Of a DNA stretch of 64,000 nt, positions 31,626 through 64,000 are shown piece after piece. The notes beneath the pieces were generated by a model. That model was not told the DNA's origin and ran no database searches. It was given only the letters and a program-made list of their open reading frames with translations. Source of the stretch: Blasia pusilla (taxonomy: Eukaryota); assembly GCA_050084515.1 (NCBI GenBank), contig CM114271.1, forward strand, positions 49,476,001 through 49,540,000, given 5' to 3'. Positions within the stretch are counted from its first letter, which is position 1. Each line of letters opens with the position of its first letter. A program made the translations under genes and the position numbers.

Positions 31626-31955
31626 AGGGTCGGGCTCACATGCAGGCCGTGGGTATGTACCCGAGCTACCACTTGCTACAACGAGCGGCAACGGCGATGA
31701 AGAAGACCCATCTCTATAGTCAATTTCACAATGAACATTGTCGTGCGCATACATATCGCTACACAACATACATCGCTTGTCACATCTACACCACACAACA
31801 CCGATCTTCCCCACACACGGGTCGATCCACACATGTACAAAAATGAACTCATACATATACATGGAGATCACACAACCGCCCCCCTAGCTGGCAGTTGGAT
31901 CCTCCTAACTCCAGATAGAAAATATCACATCTCTTTGACATGACCTACTACCCTA

Positions 31956-32093
31956 TACACATCTCGGACACATCCATCGTCCCGTGGGAACCACATCAAG
32001 GGGGGGGGTCAGACATGACATATGCCACCCTCGAGAACAACCATCACATACCAACATGGTGGCTGCACCCCTTGCAGATCCGCACAACATACA
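31956..32093 (-). other. PHD finger (C4-H-C3) at the integrase C-terminus of E2
   Basis: CMLCGSARGAATMLVCDGCSRGWHMSCLTPPLDVVPTGRWMCPRC directly before the stop codon. Confidence 0.93.
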
Positions 32094-35000: not shown

Positions 35001-35334
35001 TTGAGACCTATCACAGGCTCCCAAGTCTCCATCGTGACCTCACTCGGAGAGGGGCGCAACCTCCGGCTTTGGTTGCTACGTAGCAACCCTAGCCACCTCC
35101 AATGACCACTCCACTCTGACCTCCTACACCATGCTCCACATCCGAAAAATGAACATGTGCTACTCTAGCCGCCTTCGCACTCTCTGCTCGAACGCGCCCG
35201 GGAAGTCCATGGGTGCCTATCTCTCCTCGTCTCGCCCTGACCAATGCAGACTGAGACCACTGTGAGGCGTGGTCCAACTCGTGGACGTGACGGTATGGAT
35301 GACACTCGCATCCGTCTATGCTCAGCCCTACCTA

Positions 35335-36270
35335 GGCTGACTATCCATGTGAGACAGTTGAGGTCCATCGCCTGCCCCAACACCTGTCTCCGTGATGCCT
35401 CAGTCATCCCTGGCACCGCCGTAGTACCGGTAGTGAACCCCATGGCGCGCTCGCGCTCATCTGCTGTAGGCTCCTCCAATACTCCGGTCACCTCATCCCA
35501 AATCATACCTGGCCATACCTGACGAAAGGCATGGGATGCTGGGAAGCTCACCAACGTAGGTAAGGCTGCCCTCAACTCCCCCATCCTATTGGCCGTGGCC
35601 AATGGTGGTCTATCATCGCATGTCACCACCTGAGATTGACGCCCTGAGTCCAAAATAGCATCCACCGTGAGATGTGGTGCTCTCTGGACTCCACTGTAGG
35701 CTCGACTCAGTACCTCTCATGGTATCAGGTTCGTCCACCATAGTCGTGGACGATGGGCACGTGACCCAACTCTCGCTGCATCTAACAACACAGCCGGTCC
35801 CAACCAAGACCTCACCTGATGTACACTCGTCATCACACGTGCACGAGTATCTCCCAACAACGGCACGTTCTCCAAAATGTACGCTGGAGAACATATCTGA
35901 CTCTGCTGCAAGTGTCGTACTACTCGCAGCATCTCCCAAAACATCCCGACCTCGGATCCTGCAATCCAAATCCTCGGCCAGCTGACATGGCCATCCAGCA
36001 ATCACCAAATGAATGGTGCCAACTCTATCCAGATCATGCGCCCCCACCAACGATATGTCGGCGGGTAGCGTATGCTGGTATCCCCGTACTGCAGATACCG
36101 ACAACAACTCAGAATACCTGTGGACCAATCTCGCCACATGACGTAATGATACTCGCCGCGCGGTCTCATCTCTCTCCACATAAAGGTATTGGTGCACCCG
36201 TATGCCCGCCTGCAATACTGCAGCCAATCCGGTGCTAATCCCTCCAAAGAGATCTAACACCCTAACACCC
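35335..36270 (-). pseudogene. DNMT3-like methyltransferase domain of E2
   Basis: VRVLDLFGGISTG, YVERD, LVIAGWPCQ, YILENVP, AHRPRLWWTNL, ERERAMGF, RRQVLGQAMD. Confidence 0.92.
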
Positions 36271-39200
36271 TCCCCTGGGCATTGCCACACAACAAGTGTG
36301 GTATCTAGTGGGGTCATCGTCTCCACTCCAAGAGCCCGATCGCCACGTGACTCTCGCTGCTCTGGGATAAAAACATGACTCCACGCCGCCTCACGAGGTC
36401 GTCGGCACTCCTCTCCAGCTCTCAGTCGTACCCCATAATGGTGAAGAGGCATCGCTAACATGGGAAGAGACACCCGCCATGGCTGTCTCTCCGTGGGACT
36501 ATCCGCTCATTGGGACATCCTCCGCATGTGCGTTCCCCTCCAACAACTCTCTGGCCGGCTAACACTACTGTGAAAGCCGCCAACGTGTCCTGCACTCGCC
36601 TCGTGATCGACCATCTCGTCCGCCCCGCAAATCGCGGTAATCGACTCATCCGACCGTCACCGACCGCCATCTGGCCGATAAGCAACGGTCTCCTCCCAGA
36701 AGTCAGGATGAATCCTAGGGGATATAACACTTTGTACTCCCCACCAACACATCGTAAGACTCGGTGGAGTCGTAATCGCACGTGCGTACCATAGCACTAT
36801 CCGTCGATGCTCTGGCTGGACTCTAACAACAATCTCTGTCGAGTCATATCTTGAGTGGGTGATCGCCCCAATCGAGGTCTCAGATCTGGAAGGGACAAGG
36901 CTCAATGTCGGCCTTCCGTAACCCCGACGCTAAACACGCCGCCTTCCCTAACATCAAGGGTTGCGCTCCCGAATCAAGTAGGGCGCGCTGCGGGTGGTAT
37001 ACCGTCCCCGTCGGACTAACCAAGCGAAATACTCACTCGGTTATCCAAGTATCACTACTCAGGTGTCACCATCGCTCGCTCTATGGCGGTCGGTGGCATA
37101 TCTACCAACCGCGCCGCCGCGATGCCATGACTCGTGGGGAACGCCCCGAGCACCGGCTCTGAGGGCAAGTCCACCACCTCCTCAACTACCTCTCAACAAG
37201 AAGCAGTCATCTCTCCACGCTCACACAACGTGGCGGCCAACCGGAACACCTCAGCTGGTCCAACTCCCAACGTCGCCAACTCTATGGCGGAAAATAACGG
37301 AGTTTGGCTCACTCTAGTGGCCACCTCCAACACTATAGTCGACACTGACTCCACTTGAGCCGGCATAGGAGTTGTCACTCCAACTCCTCGTGACGTCGAC
37401 GTAGGTGCCTGAACGGTAGGCACCGCTGGTCGTCGAGGCACCATCGATGGTGTGTGTAGTGCCTCTGATAATGTGAACGACTGTGGAACCCTGGCCTGCC
37501 GCCCCTCGGTCCCCTCTGGTGGGTCAATCTCAACTCCACCTCTCGATGGCTCGGTGCCTCTCGCAGCACCCCGAGTCACCACTGCAGCTGCCTCAACCTG
37601 GGCTGCACTACACATGAATCCCATATTGGAGAGATCCTCACCCGGGTCAGGGTAAGAGGTAGAGACTGGAGTCACACTAGCTGCTCGCAGCTCTGTGCCT
37701 TCCCTAAGCTGCATCATCGTCATGGCAGCAATCCTCTGCTCCAACTGATCGATGCGTGAGAGAAGCGCCGGCTCTGGTGCTCCTGCTCCATCTCCTCTGG
37801 CTGGTGGTGGTCCTCTACCACCACGTCTAGGAAGAACTCCCCGACCTCCTCCAGGACGACCGCCCCCAGGCCCTCGGCCTACCTCTGGACGTGCCCCTCG
37901 GCAAAGGTCAAAACATCTATCCCTAGTGTGACCATATATGTGGCAATGGTCACACTGGTGCTGTGGTGGGGCCATCCTCTGTGGCTCCTGCGCAATCAGA
38001 GGCGCTGGTGGTCCTCTCCCATGCTGTGGGCAATCTCTCTGCCTATGGGCCCCTCCACACGTCCAACAAGACCACATCGGTCCCTGTTGGGCAACATATG
38101 TAGATGCGGGTCGTTGCCTCATAGGCTCACGGTACCCGCCCTGCTCTCTAGGCACACTGGCCCACTCCCGTGGTACTGGTGCCCGCTGTGGCACCGGTGG
38201 GGTCACCGCCGCTCGTGGACCCGTCGACTCTTGAGAAAATCCAGCGGTCACTACCTGCTCCTCACTCATGTTGAGCTCAATACGCTCAGACAACTCAAAG
38301 ACCACCTTCAATGTGGGCTTCGCTGTGTGAATCAGCACCGCATCTCGGACTCTCCTCCGTAGTTCTCGGTCCGAACCCGTACCAATCTTTGGACTGGATG
38401 CGCCTCGATCCTCCAAACGTAGCAATGATCAGCCTCCTCATGCGTGTGAATGCCTCTCTCGGACTCTCACCCGATCGTCGCTGAAAATCAGTAGACTCTT
38501 GACTTGTCGGTGCAGACGCCTGGTAGCTCTTCCCCAACTGTCGGAAGAACTCCACTGTGGGGATGAAGCTGGGTGGCCCTCTACCACCAGAGGTCTCTGC
38601 CACATTGCCTGTGTCACTATCCTCCTCTCCATCTAGTCTCCGGGCTGATGGTGTGGGTCTCTCTCCTCTCACAATCCCATCATATGCCTCGCGACCACTA
38701 GTGGACACATACCTTGTAGCCCAATACATCCCTCCAGGCATCGATCTCTACTGAATATAGTGATCAAAACTCCATGTAGTCATCCATCGGAGGACCCTCC
38801 AAGTGTTGGAACAACCCCTTCCATGCCATGAAAGGGTTGAACCGTGTCGGGGTCCGTATCTCCTAGAAGTCGCACCATGTATCGAACTCCTGGATGAAAT
38901 CATCTAAGTCGATGGTGCCCACTGCACCCGAGAAACGACGCATGCCCCGATGGCCCATGTCGTCCATCTCCTGCCAAGTACTACTATCTCTGTCTGCGAT
39001 CTCGTCACCAGACCCAGTGTCTAGTGATGACGATCCAGTCACGGATGGATGTCGAGGTAGCTCCTCACTTGTAACCCCTCGATATCTCACTCCACTCCGT
39101 GTCACACCACTACCACTGCTCGCACTACCCCGTTCTTCGGAACCCTGGAAGAACACCGTGATGACAAACCCTCTCTCACCTGCTCATGCACTCAGACTCA

Positions 39201-41170
39201 CCGAGAGTCTCCCACACGCCTCACTAGCTCACCTATGCGAACATCAATCCCGTGATGACACACCCGGCCTCACGCACGCTCAACACTCGGCCTTACCATG
39301 AGCCTCCCAACTGACTCACCTAACCTAGCGACACTCTCTCGGTTCATACACGCGACCCCTACTCGGCAACCGCCGTATATCCACCAACATGCTACACATG
39401 ACAAGAATCTACACTCGTCACCATCATTGCACCCATCTAGCACCAGCTAATACCCGATACCCAGCACTCTCAATCACACACGACAAGTGCGGGAAAAGGG
39501 ACTCGAATGGGTAACCTGATCACACCCTCCAACCAGCTGCACCGTCAATATGCACTCCTCCACATGATATGACAATCTCCGCCACATAACACTCCCCTCG
39601 ACCAACACGTCGATCCTCCCGTCAATAGATGCGGACAACCCGTCGGCATCATGCACACTGCCCCTCCAACGTAAACTCTCGCAACGCCCTATGCGCGCCT
39701 CAAAACAACATGTCACGCCTGCTGCCCAACTTGTCGATCACTCAGCACGTCGACATCCTCCCTGCCCTCACGTTGCCCATGCGCACCGCGTTCGCCGGAC
39801 CGACCTCGTCCGTCCTACCACGTTCGCTCGATTGTCGGCCGCCCGTCGGTGCTACCACGCCGGAAAGAGGGGGAAGAACTTGGGCCCGCGGCCCTATCGC
39901 CCCCTTGGGCCCTAAATGCGCGGGGGCGGCTCGCGCCCTGGGGCCCTAAATGCAAAGGGGAAGGCCCGCCCACGGCCCTATGCGGGCCTTAAGCGCAGGG
40001 GAGGGGGCGCTGTCGCGTGTTTTGCGGTCCGCCCAGCCGCTCCGCCACGCGCCCGCCACGCGCTTGCCGCCGTCCGCCCGCGCCCGCCCCGTCCACCGTC
40101 CGCGCCCTGCCGTCCGCCGTCCGCCGTCCGTGCCCTAACTCTAGCCGCCTTTACTTGACAGCCCCCCGGCGGCTGCAAGACCCAACTTGCCCATTCCTTC
40201 TCTTTCGACGCCTTCACTTGCGTACACCCGACGCCCCACCACACGCTACACTTTTGCTTTGTCCCCAACAATCTGCACCAGCAAAATCTGAGAAAAACGG
40301 ACAGCGCTTCCGCCCACGGCCTTCCAAACATGAAAATGACACAAAATGACACACACACATCTCCAGGGGCTCCCCAACCGAGGCAACTCGCTTGCCTACC
40401 TGCAAACAACAAATTCCCACCAGCCCCCTGACATCTTTCTCATGTAAAAATAAAGAGTAGCAAAAACGGCACACCCGGCCTAAAACTCCACTCCTCAATC
40501 TACATCGGCATATCGAGCCTCGTCCACCTTGTGCTATCAAGGAATCTGGACGCTAGCACCCTAGTCCTAGCTCACACACATACAAGGGAGGTGCTCCAAC
40601 GGCCCAACATGAGAAAGATGGCTTAGGAAAGCCATCTTCCTCTCTTATATAGGTTGGGAAGAGCCACAAGGCTCAAACCCCAAAAATAGCCCTTCCCTTG
40701 GTAACCTGCGCGCACAGGTTACCAGGGGCAGGTGACCTGGTCAACAAGTCACCCGGTTGTAAAAGACCTCAACATGAAAGTCGTCAAAAATGACGTTCCT
40801 GACACAATGGACCTATCCTCAACCTCATCCGACATTGTGGGACAAAGTTACACTCAAGATAGTCCGCTGGCTCCTACGCCCTATCCACGATAGATCTCGG
40901 CCTATCGGCTACTCATATGTGACAACATCGATTTGTCCCAGCCCCTAGCCATAGAGATGTATGGGGCTATGGGGAAGAGGTTTGAATCGTTCCTTACATA
41001 TTACACCCATCATCGATCTCCAATCGTGAACTGGGCTATCATTAGCTACTACGATTCTCTACTATAGACAACGAGTCTCTACATCTTTGCAATGTGCCCA
41101 AGCCGGTAGGATTTTGTGGAAGACGCCAACATTAGGGGCCCGCTTAGTCATAGTCATATCTCTCTAGCTA

Positions 41171-41278: not shown

Positions 41279-41323
41279 CCTTTTCTTTTCTTGGGCTGGT
41301 TGTGGCCTTCACATACTTTACTC

Positions 41324-41821
41324 TATCACATCTTGGTTTGCCGACAAGTAGAGTGCTACCACGTGGATGGCATAGAGGGTTAGCATACGGTTTGGGTGTA
41401 ACTTCTTCTTGATATGTCAGATGAGGTTGATGACTAGTCCATTACGTCAAGAACATCATTTATAGCCAATTCCCTTCTTTGCTATTTCTGGCCATATGAC
41501 CCTTTGACCAAGTCAACGGTCACCCACTAACCTATGCTTGTAGGTTACCATTTAGGGGCTATTTTAGGAGCACCTATCTTGCTTGTGTATGTAGGAACTA
41601 GGGTGCTAGTATCTAAGTGTCCGGATTCCCTCATAGCATAGGGTGGATGTGACTTGATATGTCGCTGTAGATTCAAGAGTGGATTTTTAGGCCATGTGAG
41701 CCGTTTCTACTCTAATTTTACATGAGTAAGATCCACTCGTATGTTGGGAAGATCAATGTTGTGTGGTGAGGATGAGACCAATGATGTGTGTATTGTGTAG
41801 TCGATGTGTATGCACACGAAA
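41324..41821 (+). mobile_element. Diverged solo L-S unit of the E2 subfamily (inverted relative to E2)
   Basis: 41324-41726 aligns with the reverse complement of E2 L (gtgtaactt; tgtc.gatgaggttga; ggagcacct; ctagggtgctag; ccgttt..ctactct). 41727-41821 aligns with E2 S (gggaagatc..tgttgtgtggtg; gatgtgtatgcacacga). The TATA/primer segment is deleted. Confidence 0.8.
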
Positions 41822-42672
41822 ACTCTTTGTAATTGAGTTCTCCCCCGCCCATTTTTATTGAGACCTTTTTCCCCCTTAAGAGTCCCCTAAGGCACTATTA
41901 TCCTTAGAACGGCCCCCTAGGAACTATCTTTACTACTCTAACCCCTTACGTTGCCACGTCGAATGGGGTCCAAGTAACCCTAAAGTTTTTTTATGTACGT
42001 ATTGAAGGAAGAAGTATGTTGGAGATGAGAGTGCTACATAGGAGATCCTATTGATAACACTCGAGGATGTGGTTGAGAAGCCTGTTGCATAGGTATAATG
42101 CACGAGATTCAAAGGTAGAAAATCTTGAGATTCTTTGCCAATATTACTTCCATATTATCCTTGCATCTTTCTAGAATGGATGGTAGAGAGCTGTTGAGAG
42201 TTCCACTGGGCACATCAGCCACTAATTTTGCTCCAGGCTATTGCAAACACTATTTTCCTATGGATGAGCAAGGTATATTCTACGGTGAAAAATAAATTAA
42301 CCCAATCTGAAAATATCGATCATTTATCTGTAAGTATGTATTAATTTCACAAGTCGATGCACTTTCTTCATTTCGACTCACTCATAGAGCTTTGATATGA
42401 ACATATTGTGTAGTCTAGAGATAGTCCAAACAGATCTAATTGACCCAAGAGGTCATGAGCTTTGATGACTTTAATTTCAGTTTGCGCTCGATTGTTGGTG
42501 CTACATCAATTCCACAATGAAGATTTGTGCACAAACGAAGAAATGGTATTAATTTCACACTTATAGACATGAGGCTAAGATAAGAGGGAAAGGTCTACTT
42601 GAAAAATTTCAGTCTCTAATATCGGATGTTGCGTATGCTAGAGAGGAATCAACGAGATTCCCATAATGTGCT

Positions 42673-43030: not shown

Positions 43031-43429
43031 TGGTGATTCTAATGGTTCTAGTGGGGACTTAAATGGGATTTTGTACGGGTAAGGTGCTTGACGGCTTGAG
43101 GGGTTGGAGTAGGGTTGTTGTGATAGAAAATAGGTTAGTTAGAAATAAGAGCAATTGAAGAAATGGGGATAATATTGGTGGAGAGAAGAAGGGGAATGTT
43201 AAAATATAATTGAGTAGGCTGGTTATATTGGAAAATAGGTTATTTGGAAATTAGAGTAGGTCAAAAAGGAATCTGATAGCATAACAAAATCAGATTTAAT
43301 TTCTAAATGATGACTAGTGGAGATGGTTTAGTAATAAATTGTAAGTAGGGATAGATGATTTTGGAAGTTAGAGAGGTTCATTCTCTTCCTTTCATCCTCC
43401 CACATATAAACTTGCTCATTTTTTGTGTA

Positions 43430-43809
43430 TGTCATGACCATACAGATTATGTCGTAGAATATAGTGTGCTAGTAGAGGCCATACCTTATGTAGGGCCGCA
43501 GTGTCTAGGTAGAGATGCGATTTCATACATAGGGTTGGGGTTACTCAATTGAGGGTGAGTTTTCCAGTAGGGCCCGCTCTTAGGTTGGAGGATATAAAGT
43601 GGAGTGCACTCAAAGAAGTGTCAGTTCTTTGAGTTGAGCCTGTTGCGTTGGGAGTTAGCCTTGGTAGTGAGTAGAGCTCTTGGCTATGGTGTTTCCCGCA
43701 AGCTTCGACCTAGATTCTCCCATCGTGGAGTGGGTTTGGCTTGATTGTATGTGATTCTATACGTGTTTTATGACAAAAGGTCTTTCCCGGATTTCACTCA
43801 AAGAACTGA
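43430..43809 (+). promoter_or_regulatory. E3 5' L segment: TATA (43593-43598), initiator-like TCAGTT (43621-43626), self-complementary PBS (43796-43809)
   Basis: TATAAA lies 30 nt upstream of the A in TCAGT. tcagttctttgagt (43621-43634) is the exact reverse complement of actcaaagaactga (43796-43809). Confidence 0.75.
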
Positions 43810-46800
43810 TGTAGATCGATGGTAGCTTCGGTTGTGGATCAGTAGGATCTGGTTAGGGCTAATTGTGTACTCAACTGTGGATATTCGTGGCTTGTGGCCT
43901 ATGTTGGAGGTGTGAATCTGGTGCGTGGTTGGTTGGGAAAGAAGCGCCTTGCTGAGAGCTTTCCAACGCGCTTTAGATCGCCGGATTTCGTCAAGGGAGT
44001 TGGAAGTTATCAAGGATTGAAGATTCTGGTTCGTGTTCGACGGTTTTCTGATGTGGAGAGCTTGGAGTGCGGAAGCTTTGTTGAAGTTCATCCAGATCGG
44101 GTGAGAGATTCTTGTTGCTACTTGTATTGTGATCTCATGTGAAGCTATCTGCTTGAGTGTGTGGAGCGTTGCGGATTTTTGCGTGCATGAAATTGGGCGG
44201 AAGCGCTGTCGGATTTGCGATTCTTGAGGTGTATGGACAGCAAGTTTGTCTGATTTTTAGCTCGGAGTACAGAGCTTGGTTGTAGCTAATTTTTTGTGGA
44301 GAGATAGCTATGGTGGTTAATTGAATTTTGGTTGAAACAGATTTGATTTTGGTCACGGATTTGTGAAGTAATTTTTTATCCAAATTTGGCTATGGTGGAC
44401 AGCGGATCGGAGGGGCTGGTTGGTTGGTGACTCGTTCATTGTTAGAGACGCCTATCCCATTGGGGACGCCCTGGTTGGGCCTCTCTCCATAGCAAAGCAT
44501 GGCAAACGGGGCGATAGGGGCATGTCTCGAGGCTTCGAGGCAACTCGTGGTAGCTCGGGGCGAGTGGGCGTGAGAGGCGGAGTAAGGAGCAAGGAGCAAG
44601 CAAGCAAGCTTGCTTGCTTGGGCGTGAGGCAGATTTTGCAGGATTTGTGATTTGAGTGTTGCATAACTGGTCACCCATCTTTGGGGTATTCTGCCTGGAG
44701 GACGCTTAACTACTGAGTTCTTAACTATGCCAGTGTACATACTGGTGTAGCTCATTTGGTGTTGTTCGGAGATGTGTTAGGCGCTTTATGCATCTCAAGT
44801 TTTTGGTTGATGTATCTCTAGCGCATAGTTAGGTGTAACCTTTTCATGCAGGTGATATTTTCAGGTGCTGCGAGTCCGACTAGCACGTCATCGACCCGCG
44901 GCGGAGTAGCTTTTGCGTTAGAATTGTGTGGTGGGTTTTGTAGATTCAAGGGGCGCCACGTTTGGTGGATTGTGTTACCTTGATTTCCATTTGCGATTGG
45001 AGGATTGTCGTTGGACTTCCTGTGTTTGGATCCCCTCCATCGTTGCTTCTTGCTTGCGCGCCCATTGTTAGGGTTGACGCTGATTTCCAGAGTAGTGTTA
45101 CTCCTGTGTGCTACCGGTAGTGAGGCTGGAGTGATGACCAATAGACCGTGGGAGGATTCTTGTGGTGATGACAGGTTAGGAGTGTTGCAGCTCCATTGAT
45201 TTGGGACATGGACGGGATATATGGGGCCATGAAGGGCCCACGACGATACTCGGGTGTAGTGGGCACCATTGAGTTGGAGGACTTCATGCAGGAGTTTGAT
45301 ACGTGGTGTGATATGCAGATGTTGCGGAACGCCACGTTGTTTACACCCTTCTTGGCTTGGAAGGGGTTGTTTTAGCACTTGGAGGGACCACCCATGGATG
45401 ATTACCATGAGTTTAGGAAGGACCACGTTGCTGAGATTGAGGCATGGAGACAATATTGGTCTCCAGGCTATGTGTCTATCACCCATGGTGGTATTGGTAG
45501 TAGTGCTCCTACTATGCCAGCCAGCCCGACGTTGAGTGGTACGAGTACGAGTCGGAGTGGGGGTATCAGTGGAGGTACCAGTGGAGGTACTAGTGGAGGT
45601 ACTAGTGCCCCACCATCGTTTAGCCCGGTTGCCGAGTTCTTCAAGAGGTTGAAGAAGAACTATCAGGGAGTGAAGACAGAGAAGTTGAGGAGTCTTCAAG
45701 AATTTGAGCGAAAGACTGGTGAGAGTCTTCGTGAGGCATACACTCGTATCCGACGCTTGATTTGATTACCCAGTGTGGACCGAGGCTCACGCATGATCGA
45801 TTTTGGTATGGGATCTTGGGCAGAGAGTTGCGCGCAGGTACGTGATGCTACTCTTATGAGTGATGATTCACCCACATTGACCCATGTGTTTGCTCTATTT
45901 GAGAAGATTGAGCTTAACATGGTGAAGGAGAGAGTGGTGACATCCGCATTCAAGAGGGGATACAACTACTACTTCGTGTTCAAAGCAGCCCACATCACAG
46001 TCTCGTAGTAGTGGTGGTGGTAGTAGTAGTGGGAGTCGTGGGGGTACACACGACCTCGATCAGTCCTAGAGGGACACTTGCGCAGAGACCATTGCCTTCA
46101 TTTGCTGCCCCCCAGCAAGGGGATCATGTTGGACATGTGGAGGTGATCATGTTAGGAAGTTTTGTCCCCAAGAGGATGGAAGACGGACTTTGGAGGATGG
46201 GCCTCGATCGGCCCCAACTCGGTGTGATCATTGCGGGAGACCAGGTCATCCTCGAGCGTTGCTTTGATCTTCATCCAAAGTTGAGATCAGGCCGCGGCCG
46301 TGGTGGAGTAGCTCCGAGAGGCCGAGGTGGTAGGGGTGGTAGAGGTGGATCAGTGGTTGGAGAGCCTACGTTGGCCATCCCTACCACTACGACAAGTCAA
46401 CTATGGTGTCGAGGATTGAGCGATTGGAGAGGTTGGCTACTATGGTGATATCTAGCATAGATCAGGTTCGGGAGCAGGGCTTCCACCTCTTATGGAGGGA
46501 TGATCTCTCTTATATGGCGAGTGCAAAAAGACAAGGTTGAGGCATCAAGCTGCGATACGAGAGGAGCCACTCGAGCGTCAGAGCCACGTGGTGCTACTGT
46601 GGAGTTGGACCCATAGAGAGGTGAGGCTGGGAGGCAGGCTAGGCTTCCCGAGTCATTCTTATTGTCTGAGGTGCTTAGGACTCCATCCATGGTTCCTACG
46701 CAGCCTATTGAGCCGACATTGGGGACTGAGGCATCTACATCGCGTCTAGTAGACACGGATCGACTTCAGTGCAAAGATGTGCGGATGGCAACTTCAGTGT

Positions 46801-47849
46801 TGGGATCCCCATTGTTTTCGGCCACGGAGTTGATGGCTTTAGGAGTTGACTTAGCTCATGTATTTCAGCTAGCAGCCAGGTTGTGTGAACATGGGGGTGT
46901 TAGTGCTACACGTGCTGAGGTGGATGAGGGTGTTGCAGTGGAGCGACCCTCTATGTCAAGTGTAGCATTGAGTACCAGTGCTACTTGGCAGGTAGCAGCG
47001 GCAAAGATGGATGCATTACCAACCCGGCCAGCCATTGATCGTGAGAGGCTTACACCTGGTGTATGTATGTTGGACAACCGGAGTGGAATATTCCGATTGG
47101 TGAGTCCTACAGGAAAGGTGTATAGACCAGATAGAGTCTTGTTAGACTCTGGTGCCCAACCTTTGACGTTGGGAAAGGCGTCATGTATTGGTTTGGGTAT
47201 TCGAAGGTCAGAGCTTGAGCCTTGCCCATTCCAGATTCAAACATCATTTGGAGGAGCCAATGATAGGTCTCAATTCATGACACGGGAGAAGTTTTCTGTA
47301 CAGTTGAGACCAGATCATGCGACTCATAGCTCCCGGTTGGGAGTACCTGCAGTGGTCACATCAGCCGAGTCGTATGATGTACTAGTTGGAGGAGCAGTAT
47401 TGTACCCGATGGGTTTTCAGATGGATTACTAAACTGAGACAGCGTCTTATAGACCTGGTTGGCAGTCTGGGGATGGACGTATGAGCCAAGTTCCTGTGAG
47501 ATTTATTTATGGGGCTCGACCAGGAGGGTCTTTCCCAACGGTATTAGCATCTGTGGCTGGTTTTAGTGGAGTAGTCACTTGGCCATGAGACTTTTGGGAG
47601 GGTAATGTTTCCGCTATGGATTCTCCTGTGCATGAGGAGGTAGAGGAGGTCCCTATTTTTGCAGCAATGGCATCCTCATCGTTGGATGTGCCACTTTGGA
47701 GTTCAGGAGGTGCACTACGGCAGGAGGCTTGGTGTGAGGCTGTTATACCTCACGAGGAAGAGGACGCCCCATGGCGGACTCCTACTTCTGGTCCAGTTGG
47801 GTTATCCCCTTTGGATACTACACCCATTGTATGGCAGTATGCGTCGGAG

Positions 47850-48790
47850 GGCATTTGTGTGTTAGATCTCTTTGGTGGGATTAGCAGTGGTTTGGCTGCA
47901 ATGTTGCAGACCAGTATTCTTGTGCGGAGATACGTGTATGTGGAGCGGGATGAGACGGCCCAGAGAGTCTCATCCCGACATATTGGTCAGTTGATGCGGA
48001 GATATCCTGAGTTGTTGCCGCCATCAGCTATTCGTGGGTACCGACGTGCTTTGTCCTCACACATTGCATTGTTGGGGGCGCAGGACCTTGAGAAGGTTGG
48101 TCCTGTGGATTTGGTGATTGCTGGATGGCCATGTCAGGGTCATACACGTGCTGGTCGTGGTGAGGGATTACATGACCCTAGGTCTCGATTGTTTTGGGAG
48201 ATGTTACGGGTGTTACGACATCTTCAGGTTCATCAGGCACGTGCTCCAGCTTACATTCTGGAGAATGTTCCATTGTTGGATGACACTCGGACCCGGATGA
48301 TGGCGAGTGTTCATGAGGTGCGGTCTTGGATTGGACCAGCGGTGTTATTGGATGCAGCGCGAGTTGGCTCGCGTGCACATTGTCCACGCTTGTGGTGGAC
48401 AAACTTGTTGCCTAAGGAGGTTCTACGTCGAGTGCAGCGGGATCCTTGCCTTACAATGGATAGTATCTTGGATACTAGGCGACTTTCTCAAGTGGTGAGG
48501 GTTATTGATCGGTCACCCATGGCAGTGGTGAACCGTGTGGGCCAGCCTAGGATGGCACTACCCACATTTGTGAGTTTTCCCTCGTCACATGCATACAGGG
48601 AAGGTGGTCCGGGCTTGTATGGGATTCTCATGTGCGAAAATTGGTGGAGCCTAACGCTGATGAGAGAGAGCGTGCGATGGGATTTGCTACTAGTGTGACA
48701 GCAGTTGCTTCCATTTCTGAGGCTTCACGACGTCATGTGTTGGGTCAGGCCATGGACCTGAATTGTTTGACTTGGATTTTGAGTCTTGGT
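47850..48790 (+). pseudogene. DNMT3-like C5 cytosine methyltransferase domain of E3 (best-preserved copy)
   Basis: ICVLDLFGGISSG (I), YVERD (II), DLVIAGWPCQG (IV, catalytic Cys), GLHDPRSRLFWE, YILENVP (VI), DAARVGSRAHCPRLWWTNL (VIII), ERERAMGF (IX), SEASRRHVLGQAMD (X). One frameshift near 48620. Confidence 0.95.
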
Positions 48791-51656
48791 ATGGCCGAGC
48801 AGCGTCGACTTCGGACTATGTGTGTGGGTCTTCCACCCCTTGTAATGAGCTTGATGGCTACCGGGACGATAGAGGCATCGGCTGGGGGCGAGGAGAGTAG
48901 TATTTTGCATCCTTAGAGTAAATGGGATGTAATGGCTGGGCATGTGGAGTTGGTTGCTCATGCTGGTGGAGGAGTTATTTGCTCAGATGATGGTGTAGCT
49001 AAGGGTGTACCATTTTGTGAGGGGGTTGCGTAGCAGCCAATGGCATCGTCCTCTCCCTCTAGTGTGCCAGTGAAGGAGACTTGGGAGCCATTTCTTGGGC
49101 CCAAGCTTACGGGAGGTGAGAAACGACGCTTGACACAGTTCCTACGTGCTTATAGGAGTTGTTTTGCCTTTAGCATGAAGGAGTTGGGTTCTCTGGTTGG
49201 ACCTAGTATACGGATTGATTTGGCTAGTCATACGCCAATCTTCCGTCGTCCCTACCGATATAGCGATATGGAGAGGGACCTGATTCAGAGTAGGACGTTG
49301 GACCTTTTGGAGGCTGGATTAGTGGAGTTATCGCATGGAGAGTATGCATCAGCCACTGTCATGCCTGCTAAAAAGGATATGCATGGCAACTACACGGATA
49401 GGCGGATGTGTGGAGATTACCATCCTATCAATCGGCAAACCAAGGCCGATAGGTATGCCATGCCTACATCTGAGGAGATCTTTGATGTGGTGGAACATGC
49501 AAAGATTTTCAGTACTTTGGATCTTCGGGCATGATACCATCAATTGCCGATTCGGGAGAATGACAAGGCCAAGACAGCATTTTGGGGTGTCAACTCTCAT
49601 GGCAAGGATTTTTTGTACCAGTGGAAATTCTTACCCTTTGGGTTGAAGAATGCACTTGCCGAGTTTCAGAGAGTGATGGACAGGATCCTAGCAGGATTGG
49701 ATTTTGTTTGGTGTTACATTGATGATATCTTGGTGTTGATAACACGGTGGAGGAGCATCGAGATACATTTGCAGATGGTGTTTGAGCGGTTGAAAGCTCA
49801 TGGTCTATGTTTGCATCCAGGAAAGTGTAAGTTCTTCCATGAGGATGTTGAGTACTTGGGTCATGTGATCTATCCAAGTGGTTTGGGAGTTCAGAAAGCA
49901 AAGGTGGAGACTATTGCACTTATTCCGCGTCCGGTAGATGTGAGTAGAGTTCGAGCATTCATGGGATTGGCGAACTACTATCAGAGGTATGTGAAGGGAT
50001 TTAGTGCTATGGCAAAGCCTTTGAACCAATTGCTGAAATCAGATCAAGAGTGGTATTGGGGAGATGATCAGGAGAGAGCTTTTGTGGAGCTTAAGGCCAA
50101 GTTGGTGGCGGCGCCTATCTTGAGGAGACCTATCAGAGGGCGCCCATTTCAGTTACACACTAATTGGAGTAGGTTGGGACTTGGAGCGGTGTTGACACAA
50201 CATGATGATGAGCACATGGAGTTTGTGGTGGCCTATCCAAGTCGTTCGAATAATGCAGGATAGTCGCGCTATAGTTCATATGAGGGAGAGTGCTTGGCAG
50301 TAGTGTGGGATGTGGCACACTTTAGGTGTTACTTGTTTGGCACACAGTTTACCCTTGTTACTAATCACCAGCCGCTCAAGTGGTTGATGGAGTCTGACAA
50401 GCTTACAGGGAAGCTTGCACGGTGGGCTCTTATCTTACAGAAGTATGACTTCCATGTGGTACATAGACCTGGAGTTGCCAACCTTGATGTTGATGGGTTG
50501 AGTAGGAACCCATGTACTAGCCAAGAGGATACAACTGGGGCTAGATGGCATGGCGAGGTTGATGAGGAGATGGTGCCAGGTTGGCATGCATCCGCCTTTT
50601 TATGTTGGTTAGGGATGGACTCTAGTATGGAGGACCACATGATATCTTACTCTAGTCAGAGGGTAGATGGCCAGCCTTCAGATCCTAAGGTTGGAGATGG
50701 TGGTACGGATCAGCGTGATATTCATGATGATGCGTTGGTATTGGAGTTCCTACGGACCAGTAGGGTGCCAGGCATAGTGAGTGCCAAGGAGCGAGACCGT
50801 ATTCTTCAACGTGCTAAGAGGTATCGATTGGAGGGAACACATATTCTCTGTGTGTGGGAGGATGGTAGAGTATGAGTAGTGCCGCATTTGGCTCAGAGAG
50901 AGCGCATTGTGCGACATGCCCATGAGGAGTTGGGACATTTTGGGGTAAAGCGTACGTATAGCTTACTCCTTGGTCAGTATTGGTGGCGTGGCATGCATAC
51001 TCAAGTGCAGCAGTTGGTGTCATGTTGTATGGTTTGTGACCGGGTGAGGGCATCATTCAATGCCCCTACACCACAGTTACACCCCTTGCCTATTATGGGG
51101 TTGGGTTACCGTTGGAGTGTGGACTTTGCGGGACCGTTACCGTTGACTGTACGACATGATCGATATGTTTTGGTGATGGTGGATCACTTCTCCAAGTGGA
51201 TTGAGTTGGTGGCATTACCTGACAAGGCAAGTGAGGGAACGGCGTATGCGTTTCTTGACAGAGTGCTTAGTCATTTTGGTGCACGGTGAAGTCTTGACCG
51301 ACCAATGTCTGAGTTTTGGTGAGTTTTGGTCTTGTGTGACAAGGCGTTGATTGATCATCGGACCACATCTCGAGATCATCCGAGGCGGATGGTTTGGCTG
51401 AGCGTGTGGTTCGGGAGCGGTGAAGAGGGCATTGCGCAAGTATGGCCTCTGAAGGGCATCTTGAGACCAGGATATTCAGTTGCCATGGTTAGCCATGGGG
51501 TATAGGTTCAGTCGCCAAGTATCCTTGGCTTCCTTCTCACCTTATTTTTTGTTATACTGCCGAGATCCAAACTTGCCAGCAACAATTCATTGGGAGTCTA
51601 GTGAGGTGGTGAATCTTGATGACCCAGAGATGTGGATGAGAGTGTGTTCTCAGCGG

Positions 51657-52932
51657 TGTCGTATAGTAAAATCAACTAGTGTGTAAACTCCTTCGTCATT
51701 AAGTGTTAGATAGAGTTTCATTAGTATTAAGTAAATTGGCTTAGAAAAAGGAGATTCTTATGTTTAAACCTCTTTATGGTGCCTCTTTTATGCGGGCCCA
51801 ACTTTAGGAAAAGGAGGTAATAAATAAAATATGACTTTATAAAAGTAAAGTAGTTGCTTTAATGAAAAGCAAAAGTAGTCTTGGTTGGTGGCTAGGTTAG
51901 TTGGGGTAATTTGGAAAATATCATGTGGGTAAAAGAGGATATTTTGGAAGAGATAAGAGGAAATCTACTTGTGTCAAAATGTGATTGGCTAAGCCTTGAG
52001 AGGAAGCCATGTGGCACAAGATAAGATAAGCTTTATTTCGTACTCTTGTGGATCCCTTGTGAGTATATAAAGAGGAGGGACCTTCAAGGGTTCATCACTT
52101 TCTATTCCACATCTTGAGTCTCTCGTGTCTCTCTTGAGTGTATGGCTTTGGGATTGCTTGCTTTTCCAATGAGAGTGGATCACCCCTCTTGGGAGAGTAA
52201 CTTGATCATGGTCTATTCTTCGAGAGGTTTCTAGAGTGTGGTGTATGTGTGTGGGGGGGATGAGAGGTTTGTCACCGTAGAGGAGTTTAGTCATACTAAA
52301 ATAGCGGATGTTTTGGCTTGTTACTTTCCCAATGAGAGTGGATTACCCCTCTTGGGAGAATAATTCCGCCAAAACCCATTCTTGAGGAGAGTAGAGAATG
52401 TCTGTCAAGCATGGATAGGGGTGGAGCACGAGCTATGCCCGACTTTCCTTTCCTCAATCCTTACCATGTCAAGGTACTCTTTGTAGATAGGCACTGGTTC
52501 ACTCGCTATTTAGTTTATCACTTTGGGGAGGCGTTCATGAACCAGGTCATGCAATCTCCAACTCCGGTGATTCTTCCTATCGTCACATATGGAAGGACAT
52601 GGGATTGTACTTTGTATGTCCTTATATAGCAATCCATGGATGTCAATAGGTCTGGTCAAGTAGGGTTTAACACTAGTTGTGCTATCTTCCTCGTGTACAA
52701 ACGTAAAATAGTTTATAGGGATTTTATAGTTAGGAATTTCGGGGTCCGATGTTACGAAGAAGTGATCGCCTCGGCACTTCCATTTGTGATACCTGTCGTG
52801 AGAGAATGGAGAGTGTACATCATAATTTTGTATTGAAAAAGGAGAACTTATTAGAGAGTTCACCTTGCATCGACCGCATCTACCGCAGCTAGAAGGCCCA
52901 CCCTTGCTCGAAGAAAGATTCTCGACGCGACA
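51657..52932 (+). mobile_element. 1276-bp solo-LTR-like insertion of a different family inside the E3 integrase
   Basis: TGTC...GACA ends. It interrupts the codons CSQR|AEL, leaving gcgg/acgg (4-bp TSD, 1 mismatch). TATATAAA at ~52064. Internal repeat ccaatgagagtggat.acccctcttgggaga at ~52166 and ~52329. No recognisable coding content. Confidence 0.85.
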
Positions 52933-53290
52933 ACGGGCAGAGCTCTTTCGGAGAGTTATGCCAACAGCCTTTGAGAATCTTGCCATTGCTCAACACAGGG
53001 ATACGTTGCGGTATGCAACCATTCGGGGTGGAGGTTATCGACCATCGATTCGTAGGTTCCATGTGGGGGACTATGTCTATTTGCAGCAGATTTCACCGAC
53101 AACGTTGGATGTGACGGCATGTCGCACTATTTTACAAGTGCGCGAGGTGTTAGCTTCTGGAGTTCTCATGTTGGAGGGTCGTGATGGAGTTGTTTGGAAG
53201 GACTATGTGCGTAATTATGCGCCATGTCATCCTCCAAATGTGGATGGTACTGTTGACCCAAGCTTAGCCATGATACGTGCTAGCTTGAGG

Positions 53291-53428: not shown

Positions 53429-53603
53429 TAGGAGAGGTAGATGACTTGATCTTTGCATGATATGGATTACAGATGTGCGACTAACGATGGGGCAACCTAG
53501 CACCTGGCCTTTCTGATTCGTGCACCCAAGAAGGTGTATAGCATATAGTAGATGTATAGGGCTACCTAGGAGTTAGAGGGACCTAACCGCCAGTTAGGGG
53601 GGC

Positions 53604-54160
53604 GAGTTGTGGAACACTTGTGTTTGTGGATGCTCTCGTCTATGTTATGTATGTATGTGAGTATGGTATGTCAGCGATGTATGTTGTATGACGATGTGGA
53701 TTTGCACGACAGCTGTCATGACCATACGGATTATGTCGTAGAGTATAGTGTGCTAGTAGAGGCCATACCTTATGTAGGGCCGCAGTCTCTAGGTAGAGAT
53801 GCGATTTCATACATAGGGTTGGGGTTACTCACTTGAGGGTGAGTTTTCTAGTAGGGCCCGCTCTTAGGTTGGAGGATATAAGGTGGAGTGCACTCAAAGA
53901 AGAGTCAGTTCTTTGAGTTGAGCCTATTGCGTTGGGAGTTAGCCTTGGTAGTGAGTAGAGCTCTTGGCTATGGTGTTTCCCGCAAGCTTCGACCTAGATT
54001 CTCCCATCGTGGAGTGGGTTTGGCTCGATTGTATATGATTCTATACGTGTTTTATGACAGTAGGTCTTTCACGGATTTTAGTTGTGGTACACTTGTGTTT
54101 GTGGATGCTCTCGTCTATGTTATGTATGTATGTTGTATGACGATGTGGATTCGCACGACA
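53604..54160 (+). repeat. E3 3' terminal block S1-gc-L2-S2
   Basis: S1 53604-53711, junction cacgaca-gc-tgtcatg, L2 53714-54078 matches L1, S2 54079-54160 carries a short internal deletion between tgtatgt repeats. Confidence 0.95.
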
Positions 54161-54369
54161 TGTACCCTCACAATCGCATTCCTCCCTTCATGTCTCTCTT
54201 TCTATAAATTCTTTTGTGGATGTTTTTGTCTCCATAGATACTTGAACTTGATAAGTGAGAATATATTTTGCCACTAGATAACCCTGATAATTTAAGGTAT
54301 TTTGGTTATCTAGGTTAGCATATTGATCTTTCTTGTTCATAGTGAGTGTTTCAACTTTGTCATTGGAGC

Positions 54370-55133
54370 ATTCAAGGAAAATATTTGGTGTCAGCAACAG
54401 CCGCCAGGGCTTATTTGTTGGGCATGTGATGGAGCCCATCATCAACAAGAGTGCATCCATCACGATAGTGGATGCATGTTGCAGCACGGAGGAGATGAGT
54501 CTGCATCAAGAGTTTACCAATGTGACCATTGTCAAAGGTTTGGTCATACACGCGCTAAGTGTTTTAGCCTTCACCTTGAGTTGCGTCCGGACCGAGGGCC
54601 AAAGAGGGAACCAAAGCGAGTTTTCGGTTCAGTTAGGCCTAGAGGTCATGCACCAAGTGGTCTTGTTGGTCTTGTTGGAGAACGAAGAGTTGGATTTGCC
54701 CAAAAGGCGATGGAACTGAATTGTTTGACATGGATCATCAACTTAGAAGTAGTTGAGCAACGTCGGATGAGATTGCGAAAGGTTGCAACTGTTGCATTGG
54801 TGAGCCCCATGCCTATCGAGATGGTTGAGGAGTGGCCAAAGGTCAGATCTGAGGTGATCGACATACCAGAGGAGATCGGGAGAGACACCCTTGGATGTCT
54901 TGGGATATTTTTGCACGTACGCCGAGAGATGATAGCTACAACATCGAGCGTGGTTCCAGGTATTGCACGTAGAGGAGATGAGATTTTGGAGTTGGCTGCA
55001 TGGGAGCAGCGCAGTTTTTTTGTCCGAGATGAGATTGCACCATAGCAACCACTGATACCCGCACCTGAGAGTCTTACCGTAGTCACGATGGAGAGCTGGG
55101 AGCCAGACATTGGCAAGAGGAGAGCATCGCCAG
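54370..55133 (+). mobile_element. E6 left part: older internally deleted family member (Gag zinc knuckles fused to the post-DNMT linker), target of the E4 insertion
   Basis: ORF 54323-55045 has CWACDGAHHQQEC and CDHCQRFGHTRAKC, then jumps to AMELNCLTWII (the end of DNMT motif X). The sequence resumes after E4 at 62667. Confidence 0.85.
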
Positions 55134-55989
55134 TGTCACGACTGTTAGGATAGATCGGTGGGATCTAGCAGAACGTCTGCACGAGTAGTGGAGGACATGC
55201 CCAAGAGGTCAAGGATGACCTGTTGAGGCCCCAGGAAACCATTTCGGCTCATTTGGAGCCATATAGAGAAACTTGCTATTTCAGGTAAGTTTCCATGTTA
55301 GAGATAGTTGACTTTCTACTTTGGGAAGTGGCCCTTGATCCGCTATAGTAGGTCAAGAGCCAAGGAGGTGACCTGCGAGAATAGGTTACCGTTGAGAGGG
55401 CTTGGGAGAGGGAAGGGGATATACCTCAAGGAGAGAGAGCTTGAGAGCTCATTCTCTCTTTGTTGAACCTCTTGGCATAAGGCGGCGGAGCTATGGTCCC
55501 TTGCCTTGTGAGTGTAACCCAAGCCTCTCATTAGGAGAGTGGGTTTGATTTGACATGAGAGAGAGTGCACACCTTTGAGAGCTATGGTGTGAGATGGTGT
55601 AGAGAGAGATTGGATCTAACTTTACAAAGAGAGAATGAGATAATGAGAGAGCTTCATGGGGGAACTCGTTGGTCACTCGTTGTTTTTGTAGGTTGGGGAC
55701 CGTGTTCCCCATTCAGCTGCTCATGGGAGTGCTCACCAGAGCAAGGGCTGCTTTGATTGTTCTTTGCATTTGCCGATTTTTCCGTGTGTAAGAGTAGCGC
55801 GGAAGCGCTCCCCAATTTCTCATAGGGATTGATTATGGGGATAGGTTGCCCCATGCCGGTGCTCTCTGGAGCACCATGAAGCTTGCTGATTTGTATTTTT
55901 ATAGGTTTTACATTTTCATTGGGAGAAACCAGCGCGGAAGCGCTGCCAAATTTTGTGTAGGAGAAAGAGACATTGGGCTTTACGATCGC

Positions 55990-61701: not shown

Positions 61702-61890
61702 AGGAGATACTAGGTAGGTTTCGATTTCGACTTTTTCTGTGACATCGATGGTAGGAAGAAGACTAAGGATGGGGCCACATGAGCACCTGACCTTTCTGCT
61801 CTTAGCGTCCTAGAGATGTATGTCGCGCTAGGTAGGGATAGATGGCTATCTGGAGTTAGACGGACCTAACCACCAGCTAGGGGGGGGGGC

Positions 61891-62662
61891 GATTGGAGAT
61901 ATTTTGGTATTTCTCGCCTTTGTGTATGGATGCCATGAGTTAGCATGGAATCGTCTGTGTTTTTGTGTGTGTTCGATGACAGCAATGTATGTTGTGTAGC
62001 GATGTGTATGCGTACGACAATTGTCACGACTGTTAGGATGGATCGGTGGGATCTAGCTGAGCGTCTGCATGAGTAGCGGAGGACACGCCTAGGAGGTCAA
62101 GGATGACCTGTTGAGGCCCTGAGAAACCTGAGAGAGCAGGTTTCCCCTTCGTTTCGGCTCATTTGGAGCCATATAGAGAAATTTTCAATTTCATGTAAGT
62201 TTATATATTAGGAATAGTTGACTTTCCACTTTGGGAAGTGACCCTTGACCCGCTACAGCAGGTCAAGAGCCAAGGATGTGACCAACGAGCATAGGTTACG
62301 GTTGAGAGGGCTTGGGAGAGGGAAGGGGATATACCTCAAGGAGAGAGAGCTTGAGAGCTCATTCTCTCTTTGTTGAACCTCTTGGCATAAGGCGGCGGAG
62401 CTATGGTCCCTTGCCTTGTGAGTGTAACCCAAGTCTATCATTAGGAGAGTGGGTTTGGTTTGACATGAGAGAGAGTGCACACCTTTGAGAGCTATGGTGT
62501 GAGATGGTGTAGAAAGATATTGGATCTTTCTTTAATTGGAGATATTTTGGTACTTCTTGCCTCTGTGTATGGATGCCATGAGTTAGCATGGAATTGTGTG
62601 TGTTTGTCTGTGTGTTTGATCACAGCAATGTATGTTGTGTAGTGATGTGTATGCGCACGACA
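61891..62662 (+). repeat. E4 3' terminal block S1-at-L2-S2
   Basis: The 129-bp S occurs at 61891-62019 and 62534-62662. Junction tacgaca-at-tgtcacg. L2 matches 55134-55623. Confidence 0.95.
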
Positions 62663-62666
62663 CCAG

Positions 62667-64000
62667 ATACATCAATTCCGTAGGAATTATAGGAGTTGTT
62701 TTTCATTTAGCATGCATGATTTGGGTATGCTAAAGGGCACAAGGATCCATATTGAGTTGTCTAGCGACACGTTGATCTTCCGACGACCTTACAGGTACAA
62801 TGATATGGAGAGGGCTCTGATTCAGAGTAAGAGCCAAGACTTGATTGGAGCAAGATTAGTGGAGATGTCACATGGAGAGTATGCATCTACCATTGTCATA
62901 CCCGCCGAGAAGGATGTGCATGGCAACTGGACAGATACGTGGATGTGTGGAGACTACCAACCAATCAATCGGCAAACAAAGTCTGATAGGTATGTTATGT
63001 CCACTCCTGAGGAGATTTTTGATGCTATTGGGCATGCAAAGGTCTTTAGTTCATTGGATCTTTGAGCCAGAGACCATCAACTGCCTAGCAGATTGGAGGA
63101 CATGCAAAAGACGGCACTTTGGGCATTGATCCTCACAGGAAGGATTGCTTGTACCAGTGGCGTTTCTTACCATTTGTGTTAAAAAACGCTCTAGCTGAGT
63201 TTGAGAGGGTCATGGATAGGATCTTGGCGGATCTAGATTTTGCAAGGTGTTAAATTGATGACATTGTAGTCTTTAGCGCCGCGGTTAAGGAACATAAGTG
63301 TGGCGCTTGAGAAGCATGAGCGACATCTAGAAGAGGTGTTTTGACGATTGCAGTTACATGGGTCGAAGCTACATCCAGGCAAGTGTAAGTTCTTCTACTA
63401 CCAGATTTAGTACCTTGATCATATGATATACCGAGATGGCCTTGGTGTGCAGTAGACCAAGGTAAAGGCTATTTCATGAATTCCATGCCCTACAGATGTG
63501 AGTCGAGTTCGTACATTCATGGGATTGCCAAAATTCTATCAACCATACATCAAGGGTTTCAATTCAATTGCAAAGCCTCTAATCTTGTTGACCAAGGTGG
63601 ATGACAAGTGGCAGTGGGGGGATGAGCAGGAGAGAGCATTTCAACTACTCAAGGACAAGTTGACGTCCGCATCCATATTGAGGATCAATCAGGGGACGTC
63701 TTTTGCAGTTGCACATAAATTGGAGCATTTTGGGGCTTGCAGCGGTGCTCACCCACCATGACGATGATGATAGAGAGGTCGTGGTGGCTTACGCTAATCG
63801 ATTGAACAACATTGCACAGGCAAAGTATAGCTTGTATGCAGGTAAGTGCTTGGCTACAGTATGGGCTGTTGCGCATTTCAGGTGTTATTTATTCGACATA
63901 TGGCCAAGATATTCACGAGGATGGAGTAGTCTTGGAGTATGTGTGTATTGGCAGCGTCGCAAGCACAGCGGGTGCTAGAAAGTAGGATCGAATCTTAGAG
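62667..64000 (+). mobile_element. E6 right part: degenerate RT/RNase H, running off the window end
   Basis: Continues the sequence interrupted at 55133 (compare the uninterrupted cgccggatacatcaattcc at ~58701). ORFs 62712-63065, 63498-63761 and 63703-63978 are RT/RH fragments. A further deletion at ~63898 jumps to the pre-integrase linker. Confidence 0.88.

Follow-up and report, generated by a model that had tools for sequence, protein, structure and literature searches.

The window (the whole stretch of 64,000 nt that was analysed) contains three Ty3/gypsy-type retrotransposons, named E1, E3 and E4, that share the layout L1–internal–G-run–S1–NN–L2–S2, in which L and S are two kinds of direct repeat and NN is a 2-nt spacer, and in which the palindrome-like motif GACA-NN-TGTC spans the boundary between S1 and L2. 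This palindrome is probably an internal image, transmitted through RNA, of both integrase termini, and the integrase would cut its cDNA copies in a joined-end intermediate. The positions of the repeats, the target duplications outside them, the constancy of the spacer in related loci, the location of putative priming sites and the RNA coverage of one element bear on this reading and are presented below.

Junctions, repeats and termini in the window

The junction reads GACA-AT-TGTC in E4 (GACAATTGTC, 62016-62025, plus strand) and GACA-GC-TGTC in E3 (GACAGCTGTC, 53708-53717, plus strand); the junction of E1 is GACA-GT-TGTC (GACAACTGTC at 8458-8467, with GACAGTTGTC as the minus-strand reading). 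An initial annotation of this DNA had placed a GACA-NN-TGTC junction between S1 and L2 in each of the three elements, and all three were found at these positions and at that boundary; its description of the E4 and E3 junctions as perfect 10-bp palindromes is borne out by the sequence. Taken by itself, the motif count is within chance in the window: GACA-NN-TGTC occurs 3 times versus 1.4 expected, at least 3 occurrences were obtained in 16 of 100 shuffles, the half-sites at spacings other than 2 give 0-5 matches, and CAGCTG is unremarkable (10 versus 18.5 expected). The signal lies in structural position, not in motif frequency, as all three motifs coincide with the S1 end/L2 start boundary in repeat alignments that were built independently of the motif. 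The elements, a unit-type copy (E2) and a solo copy have the following features.

55130-55133 and 62663-62666, E4 target duplication CCAG, exact
55134-55624, plus strand, E4 L1, the 5′ long repeat, starting with TGTC (repeat alignment)
55625-55639, plus strand, E4 putative self-priming PBS of 15 nt (complementarity to L)
61880-61889, plus strand, E4 G-run (polypurine tract), 2 nt before S1
61892-62019, plus strand, E4 S1, 128 nt, ending with GACA, 91% identity to S2
62020-62021, plus strand, E4 spacer NN, AT
62022-62534, plus strand, E4 L2, 88% identity to L1 (repeat alignment)
62535-62662, plus strand, E4 S2, at the element's right end, with GACA as its last bases and the target duplication after it
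43426-43429 and 54161-54164, E3 target duplication TGTA, exact
43430-43794, plus strand, E3 L1 (repeat alignment)
43796-43809, plus strand, E3 PBS-like sequence ACTCAAAGAACTGA
53597-53602, plus strand, E3 G-run (polypurine tract) before S1
53604-53711, plus strand, E3 S1
53712-53713, plus strand, E3 spacer NN, GC
53714-54078, plus strand, E3 L2, 96.4% identity to L1
54079-54160, plus strand, E3 S2, with ~26 nt deleted relative to S1
7987-17866, minus strand, E1, whole element, with target duplication ATAT/ATGT (3 of 4 bases match)
17503-17866, minus strand, E1 L1
8573-8578, minus strand, E1 polypurine tract (a C-run on the plus strand)
8464-8571, minus strand, E1 S1, 99% identity to S2
8462-8463, minus strand, E1 spacer NN, GT
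8095-8461, minus strand, E1 L2, 94.6% identity to L1
7987-8094, minus strand, E1 S2
31739-40924, minus strand, E2, unit-type copy with L1, internal region, G-run and S1 and without L2-S2
40433-40924, minus strand, E2 L1
31739-31876, minus strand, E2 S1
31735-31738 and 40925-40928, E2 target duplication ATGT, minus-strand reading (flanks read by eye)
41324-41821, plus strand, solo L-S copy of an E2-like family (boundaries read by eye)
41320-41323 and 41822-41825, target duplication ACTC of the solo L-S copy

No S follows L1, the alignments diverging right past the L end. Direct repeats of the L1/L2 type were searched for in E2 and none were found, which makes it a unit-type copy. Within each copy, S1/S2 and L1/L2 appear to be about equally diverged: the S/L identities are 99/95% in E1 and 91/88% in E4 and, in related loci outside the window, 94/92% in L011, 93/91% in L029, 94/91% in L034, 92/90% in L044 and 88/81% in L078.

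Duplications of 4 bp stand directly outside TGTC at the L1 start and GACA at the S2 end. Exact duplications were found in eight copies (E3, E4, E2, L011, L029/L034, L078, L008 and L022), and in three further copies (E1, L044 and L025) they match at 3 of 4 bases. They include unit-type copies (ATGT in E2, TACA in L008 and TGTG in L022; 3 of 4 bases in L025), and the spacer NN was never found at the ends of an integrated element. Since the target duplications lie outside TGTC and GACA, the palindrome consists of the right terminus, 2 nt and the left terminus. E4 is nested in the RT region of another element, and its CCAG duplication is confirmed by an uninterrupted homologue of this host element.

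Several other arrangements were noticed around the elements. The stretches 54705-55114 and 62663-64000 are the two RT/RNase H halves of one element, ~80% identical to E4, and because E4 splits this region the insertion is nested within the same superfamily. E1 seems to be inserted in another repeated sequence, with flanks (7774-7986 and 17928-18145) that show 79% mutual similarity and an abundance of GGACATGTCC-like words. At 22800-23813 and 24000-26000 there are a block of diverged tandem repeats, with units of ~180-360 bp and 71-76% identity, and an adjoining low-GC stretch (GC 0.295). The solo L-S copy is either a product of L1xL2 recombination or the result of direct insertion of an L-S fragment.

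The window ORFs match the Pfam domains RVT_1, RT_RNaseH and Integrase_H2C2 plus rve, with a C-terminal PHD, and an E3 ORF upstream of the RT (47589-48698, plus strand) contains a C-5 cytosine DNA methylase domain (PF00145, E 5.9e-10). Full-length relatives have the domain order RT – RNase H – (methylase) – integrase – PHD, and the same Pfam domains in the order RT – RNase H – integrase are present in P0009, P0012, P0017 and P0030; the placement of the methylase varies among them, either before the RT or between RNase H and integrase (P0017 versus P0030). The D, D and E columns of the integrase alignment are conserved. No match to a tyrosine recombinase (Phage_integrase) was found among the 53 window ORFs scanned and an rve integrase is present, on which grounds a tyrosine-recombinase element was rejected.

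Judged by predicted domains, the Pol order RT – RNase H – integrase, with H2C2 and an rve DDE core, is that of the Ty3/gypsy lineage, and the TG...CA termini with a short target duplication (TGTC...GACA, 4 bp) agree with it. The repeats do not have the classical LTR layout, as L1 is without S, the G-run is separated from L2 by S1 plus 2 nt, and an extra S2 is located at the right; the part of that layout that is present is a putative PBS adjoining L1, apparently of the self-priming type. The split repeats of DIRS elements (PAT-like/Ngaro, A1-int-B1A2B2) are found as L1-int-S1-NN-L2-S2, whereas an rve integrase is present instead of the DIRS tyrosine recombinase, and 4-bp duplications are present instead of the absence of target duplication. 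The elements thus depart from the classical LTR layout and from two of three DIRS features, and their working mode may be likened to that of a DDE element that uses a junction of joined ends.

The junction in related loci

A metagenome scan with the integrase alignment yielded 80 related loci, with an integrase identity of ~80% in family A, ~48% in family B and 42-55% in a few loci. Within these loci, the two half-sites occur 33 times at a spacing of 2, versus 4-14 times at each of the spacings 0, 1 and 3-8. In a scripted census of the 80 loci and the window, 50 complete S copies with a G-run in front were recorded; 31 of them continue into an L start, with a spacer of 2 nt in 31/31 and with 0 cases at spacers 0, 1 and 3-8, and the other 19 run into unrelated flank. 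Spacer length across copies, the check that the initial annotation had suggested, is therefore 2 nt in every G-run-preceded S copy with an L start. When loci with identical flanks were merged, 25 distinct junction-bearing insertions and 17 unit-type insertions were obtained (the unit-type group L074 has a diverged S end, and L045 may equal the insertion L048/L049).

Four further junctions exist beyond the 25, three of them from more distant lineages. The junction of L058 is GACA-TC-TATC, again with a 2-nt spacer, and the distant lineages, with 44-55% integrase identity, have GACA-GT-TGTC (L037), GACA-GC-TGTC (L075) and GGCA-GC-TGCC (L077), each 105-165 nt downstream of a G-run. In L069 (42% identity) a G-run was not found and the junction-like match is weak. 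When L037, L069 and further distant or short loci were each compared with themselves, no pairs of repeats emerged, as these contigs end too soon.

This recurrence bears on the idea that the junctions arose by chance, nested insertion or misassembly, that is, by accidental abutment of LTR fragments. Such an origin would agree with the non-significant motif count in the window and with a window full of nested elements; yet the same junction occupies the same structural position in 25 insertions on independent contigs, is found also in L058 and three more distant lineages, and is covered by RNA reads, which leaves this origin a negligible probability. A nested solo-LTR accident and an assembly artefact were rejected on the basis of the census of 25 insertions.

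GC is the spacer in 15 of the 25 groups, followed by AC (4), AT (4) and GT (2). Orthologous alleles differ in the spacer (GC/TC in L034/L029, GC/AC in L072/L079), and the flanking half-sites have the variants AACA, GATA and TATC. Over all copies, C>T and G>A make up ~80% of the departures from the column majority, a bias that fits deamination-type decay and heavy cytosine methylation of the copies. AC, GT, AT, GATA, TATC and AACA can all be reached from GACAGCTGTC by such transitions, so that the different spacers are most simply explained by decay, and spacer variety probably reflects mutation of one ancestral CA-GC-TG core; the spacer TC is an exception that requires a transversion. The different spacers of the window, to which the initial annotation had drawn attention, are real (AT, GC and GT are present), but C>T/G>A decay of an ancestral GC accounts for them more simply than functional variety. 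At L042:6940-6955 the S end, the spacer and the L start are deleted between short direct repeats (ATGA), which suggests that a junction can be lost after insertion.

Priming sites, transcription and a possible route of integration

A G-run (putative polypurine tract, e.g., CTAGGGGGG) precedes S1 by 0-2 nt in every family. At the other end of the internal region, 8 of the 15 copies have, in the 12-16 nt after L1, an exact complement to a site in L, a match that none of 300 shuffles equalled in any of them; the distance from this site to the L end is ~130 nt in family B and ~175 nt in family A and in E1, E3 and E4, and the E4 PBS has its exact complement 177 nt ahead of that end (0/300 shuffles). 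The remaining 7 of the 15 copies are without an exact complement of at least 12 nt, which we attribute to a decayed or weaker site, decay being our assumption. There are three different PBS sequences and each matches its own L, which amounts to covariation, and minimum-energy folds of the putative RNA 5′ region close on a PBS helix of 13-14 bp (z -3.3 and -4.18 (E4)). A TATA-like motif is found ~30 nt upstream of the PBS-complementary site in E3 and E4; within L of E3, TATAAG occupies positions ~165-170 and the complement of the self-primer positions 195-205. A tRNA-type PBS was ruled out, as no TGG start follows L1, and the PBS after L1 is a putative self-priming signature of the Tf1/sushi/Tcn1 type. 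The copy at L036:3242-3880 is aberrant, with S1-GC-L and PBS followed by an inverted 5′ part of L (~180-190 nt) and an inverted L start at the flank; it looks like the snap-back of a self-priming hairpin that still integrated via a TGTC-type end.

The location of these sites also bears on a scheme in which both strands are primed at the junction itself, with the L start as PBS and the S end as plus-strand primer, so that a linear NN-L-int-S-NN would be made and L2-S2 added later. The frequency of unit-type copies (17 distinct groups versus 25 with the junction) would agree with this scheme, as would the resemblance of the CA-NN-PBS layout to the retroviral U5/PBS boundary. However, the S end is not purine-rich and the conserved G-run lies before S1 instead, a covarying self-complementary PBS follows L1, unit copies without a 3′ U3-R could not sustain the family, and no route to L2-S2 is offered; we consider priming at the junction very unlikely.

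For E3, RNA coverage was evaluated in bins of 367 nt from two runs of stranded raw reads whose species label is that of the best-matching DNA. Sense reads span all of E3 in both runs, and the family is apparently transcribed in a bryophyte-like host. The depth is 92 and 154 in 53576-53942, a bin that takes in S1 and the junction and extends ~230 nt into L2, and 10 and 18 in 53943-54300, comprising the remaining L2, S2 and flank; reads from L1 and L2 are interchangeable, and S2 of E3 is partly deleted. The drop past ~230 nt of L2 indicates a transcript that continues through S1-NN into the 5′ part of L2 and terminates inside that repeat, and S2 would be transcribed little or not at all. If the transcript ends in L2, copying from S1 and L2 must restore S2 and the 5′ part of L1. 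A pile-up of read starts at 53874, seen in one run only, disagrees with the TATA-predicted start; both the start of transcription and the poly(A) site are resolved to 367-base bins.

Further joints were noticed in the RNA reads. Reads of both runs skip an insertion of ~1283 bp in E3 (window 51652-52934), which is absent from E1 and from expressed copies, by joints from 51652-51655 to 52934-52940. A joint from 54031 to 43460 (4 and 9 sense reads) connects L position 318 to 31 across a TATA microhomology and could stem from rearrangement of a copy, from L in tandem or from an artefact of the library. Another, from 45293 to 53040 (6 and 7 sense reads), bridges a gap of 7746 nt between the 5′ internal region and a point shortly ahead of the PHD/3′ region; its ends, GT..TC, are not those of a canonical intron, and it may represent a deleted non-autonomous copy or a subgenomic RNA.

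RNA that covers the junction would also suit a role of the junction solely as a DIRS/PAT-like template or splint for reverse transcription, on which absent outer ends would be copied and cDNA ends bridged, with the termini made by polymerase run-off or by host nucleases. The A-coding-B-A-B layout is indeed of the PAT/Ngaro type and is so described for KnitGypsy-Dnmt3 in the main text of PMC5890265. Termini that are contiguous in cDNA would nevertheless still need exact separation at CA and TG, neither the polypurine tract nor the PBS was located at the junction, and the elements possess a DDE integrase, TG...CA ends and 4-bp duplications and no tyrosine recombinase. We therefore regard a template or splint role by itself as unlikely.

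Cleavage by the integrase, and the nature of the joined intermediate, are what we infer from the observed anatomy, target duplications, spacer, G-run, putative primer site, RNA coverage and ragged L|S joint. With the polypurine tract before S1 and the PBS after L1, reverse transcription would give LTRs of the form S-NN-L, with the integrase sites inside. Standard reverse transcription would lead to a cDNA S-NN-L – internal – S-NN-L, the predicted ends of which are not TG/CA (the S start is GAGTT... or ATTGG..., and the L end ...GGATTT or ...CTTTA), and TG...CA sites would occur solely at the palindrome within each LTR. The right cDNA end (L) would then be joined to the left cDNA end (S), in a 2-LTR-type circle or by a template jump of the RT, and the DDE integrase would nick each strand of the 5′-LTR junction behind its CA, with a 2-nt stagger. 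Both sides would thereby acquire a recessed CA-3′OH together with a 5′ overhang of 2 nt, as in a retroviral end after processing, and the integrated form would correspond to the cDNA minus the left S-NN and plus an S after L2.

The L2|S2 joint differs by 0-3 nt among related copies and the length of S-NN-L is invariant. In family B the joint is TTCA, TTCAA, TTCAAT or TTCAATC before ATACATG, possibly with an AT microhomology, and in family A it is C, T, G or CG between TTT and AGTTG. The ragged L|S joint, the fixed S-NN-L and the equal divergence of S and L fit a joint that is made anew for each insertion. A symmetric 2-LTR-type circle has two equivalent junctions, and permuted copies (L-S-NN-L-int-S) are therefore expected from it; none were seen in ~15 inspected 5′ ends, which favours an asymmetric intermediate, e.g., one in which the plus strand switched template at the L end and continued at the S start, or else a bias. 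Unit-type copies (L-int-S, with target duplications), of which there are 17 distinct groups, could originate from linear cDNA, from a 1-LTR circle or from later S1xS2 recombination, and by their divergence from the column majority they look older in family A (p 0.037) and not in family B. Against the proposed cleavage count that retroviral integrases are generally known to process ends efficiently only close to a DNA terminus, and that no cleaved or circular intermediate was seen in the DNA runs, which consisted of contigs.

The suggestion of the initial annotation that the junction is an integrase cleavage site is thus partly upheld: the termini are real, a DDE integrase is encoded and the junction lies inside the predicted LTR, but the target would be the cDNA copies of the junction and not its chromosomal copy. 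Its idea of two integration-ready ends produced in one step does not address a further requirement of a heritable copy, the joining of the L end with the S start. With this amendment, integrase cleavage fits every structural fact tested and is partly supported, the cleavage itself being deduced from sequence. More tentatively, and with somewhat less than even confidence, we propose that the lineage would reproduce only via a joined-end cDNA that is opened, like a restriction site by its enzyme, by a symmetric integrase at CA-GC-TG, and that it would represent streptophyte Ty3/gypsy elements whose integrase ends have moved inside the LTR.

Relation to known systems and meaning

Liverworts supply the best named homologues of the integrase (Calypogeia 81%, Riccia 70%; the Marchantia matches are partial), and further homologues are found in Sphagnum and among retrotransposon proteins of Klebsormidium nitens (41-42% identity). 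From the latter, de Mendoza et al. 2018 (PMC5890265) describe KnitGypsy-Dnmt3, with a repeat layout given as ‘the same as that of a DIRS retrotransposon’, and according to the main text of that paper it shares a Gypsy-type Pol, with an inserted C5 DNA methylase as in E3, and the A-coding-B-A-B layout with the elements of the window, the integrase of which is closest to liverworts (70-81%) and has 41-42% identity to K. nitens. The main text of PMC5890265 contains no junction, spacer, priming sites, integration model, circular forms or target duplications of KnitGypsy, and searches of other literature found nothing on the junction or the mechanism.

PAT-like and Ngaro elements (DIRS order) share the split direct repeats A1-int-B1A2B2, and their internal B1A2 joint mirrors joined ends. 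A circular or joined intermediate has been proposed for them; they differ by a tyrosine recombinase and the lack of target duplication from the window elements with their DDE integrase, TG...CA ends and 4-bp duplications. In the circles of the IS3 and IS30 families, abutted ends that are a few bases apart are the substrate of a DDE enzyme, but these are copy-out/paste-in DNA transposons in which the junction exists only in the excised circle and not in the integrated element. The use of LTR-LTR junctions in vivo by retroviral-type integrases has been argued since the 1980s and is contested for retroviruses, and the 2-LTR junction of HIV-1 has 4 nt between CA and TG. Tf1/sushi and Tcn1 elements differ from the window elements by ordinary LTRs, a polypurine tract that abuts the 3′ LTR, and a chromodomain instead of a PHD at the integrase's C-terminal end. 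A self-complementary PBS would be shared with them, to judge by complementarity and folds. In Tf1/sushi and the plant Tcn1 Ty3/gypsy elements, the PBS is described as complementary to the 5′ region of their own RNA and not to a tRNA (PMC6317226). The integrases of PFV and HIV-1 are reported to cleave a palindromic LTR-LTR junction in a ‘restriction-like’ manner that gives 3′-processed ends, and an internal palindrome of U5 end and U3 start that is cut by an integrase is what these systems would share with the window elements (PMC1180852, PMC1905944). The retroviral junction is formed by joining blunt cDNA ends, and its role in replication is contested, whereas that of the window elements is encoded in the element, has 2 nt, and is apparently the only source of usable ends.

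The repeat layout is already in print for Klebsormidium, in the main text of de Mendoza et al. 2018 (PMC5890265). What appears to be new is the junction in its exact form (palindrome, GC core and a spacer of 2 nt), the 4-bp duplications, the location of the priming sites, the raggedness of the L|S joint, the mechanistic proposal, and the presence of such elements in liverwort-like and moss-associated DNA. For annotation, these elements can be recognized by L...G-run-S-NN-L-S together with 4-bp duplications; LTR finders would place wrong boundaries on them. The proposed mechanism would account for the ‘DIRS-like’ repeats in a Gypsy element, and because the logic of the sequence leaves the integrase no other usable ends, the family would offer a natural system for direct tests of junction cleavage. 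If the mechanism is true, these elements would be the first retroelements with LTR-LTR-type junction cleavage as an obligatory integration route, and would represent a DDE element that has converged on the repeat design of DIRS/PAT elements.
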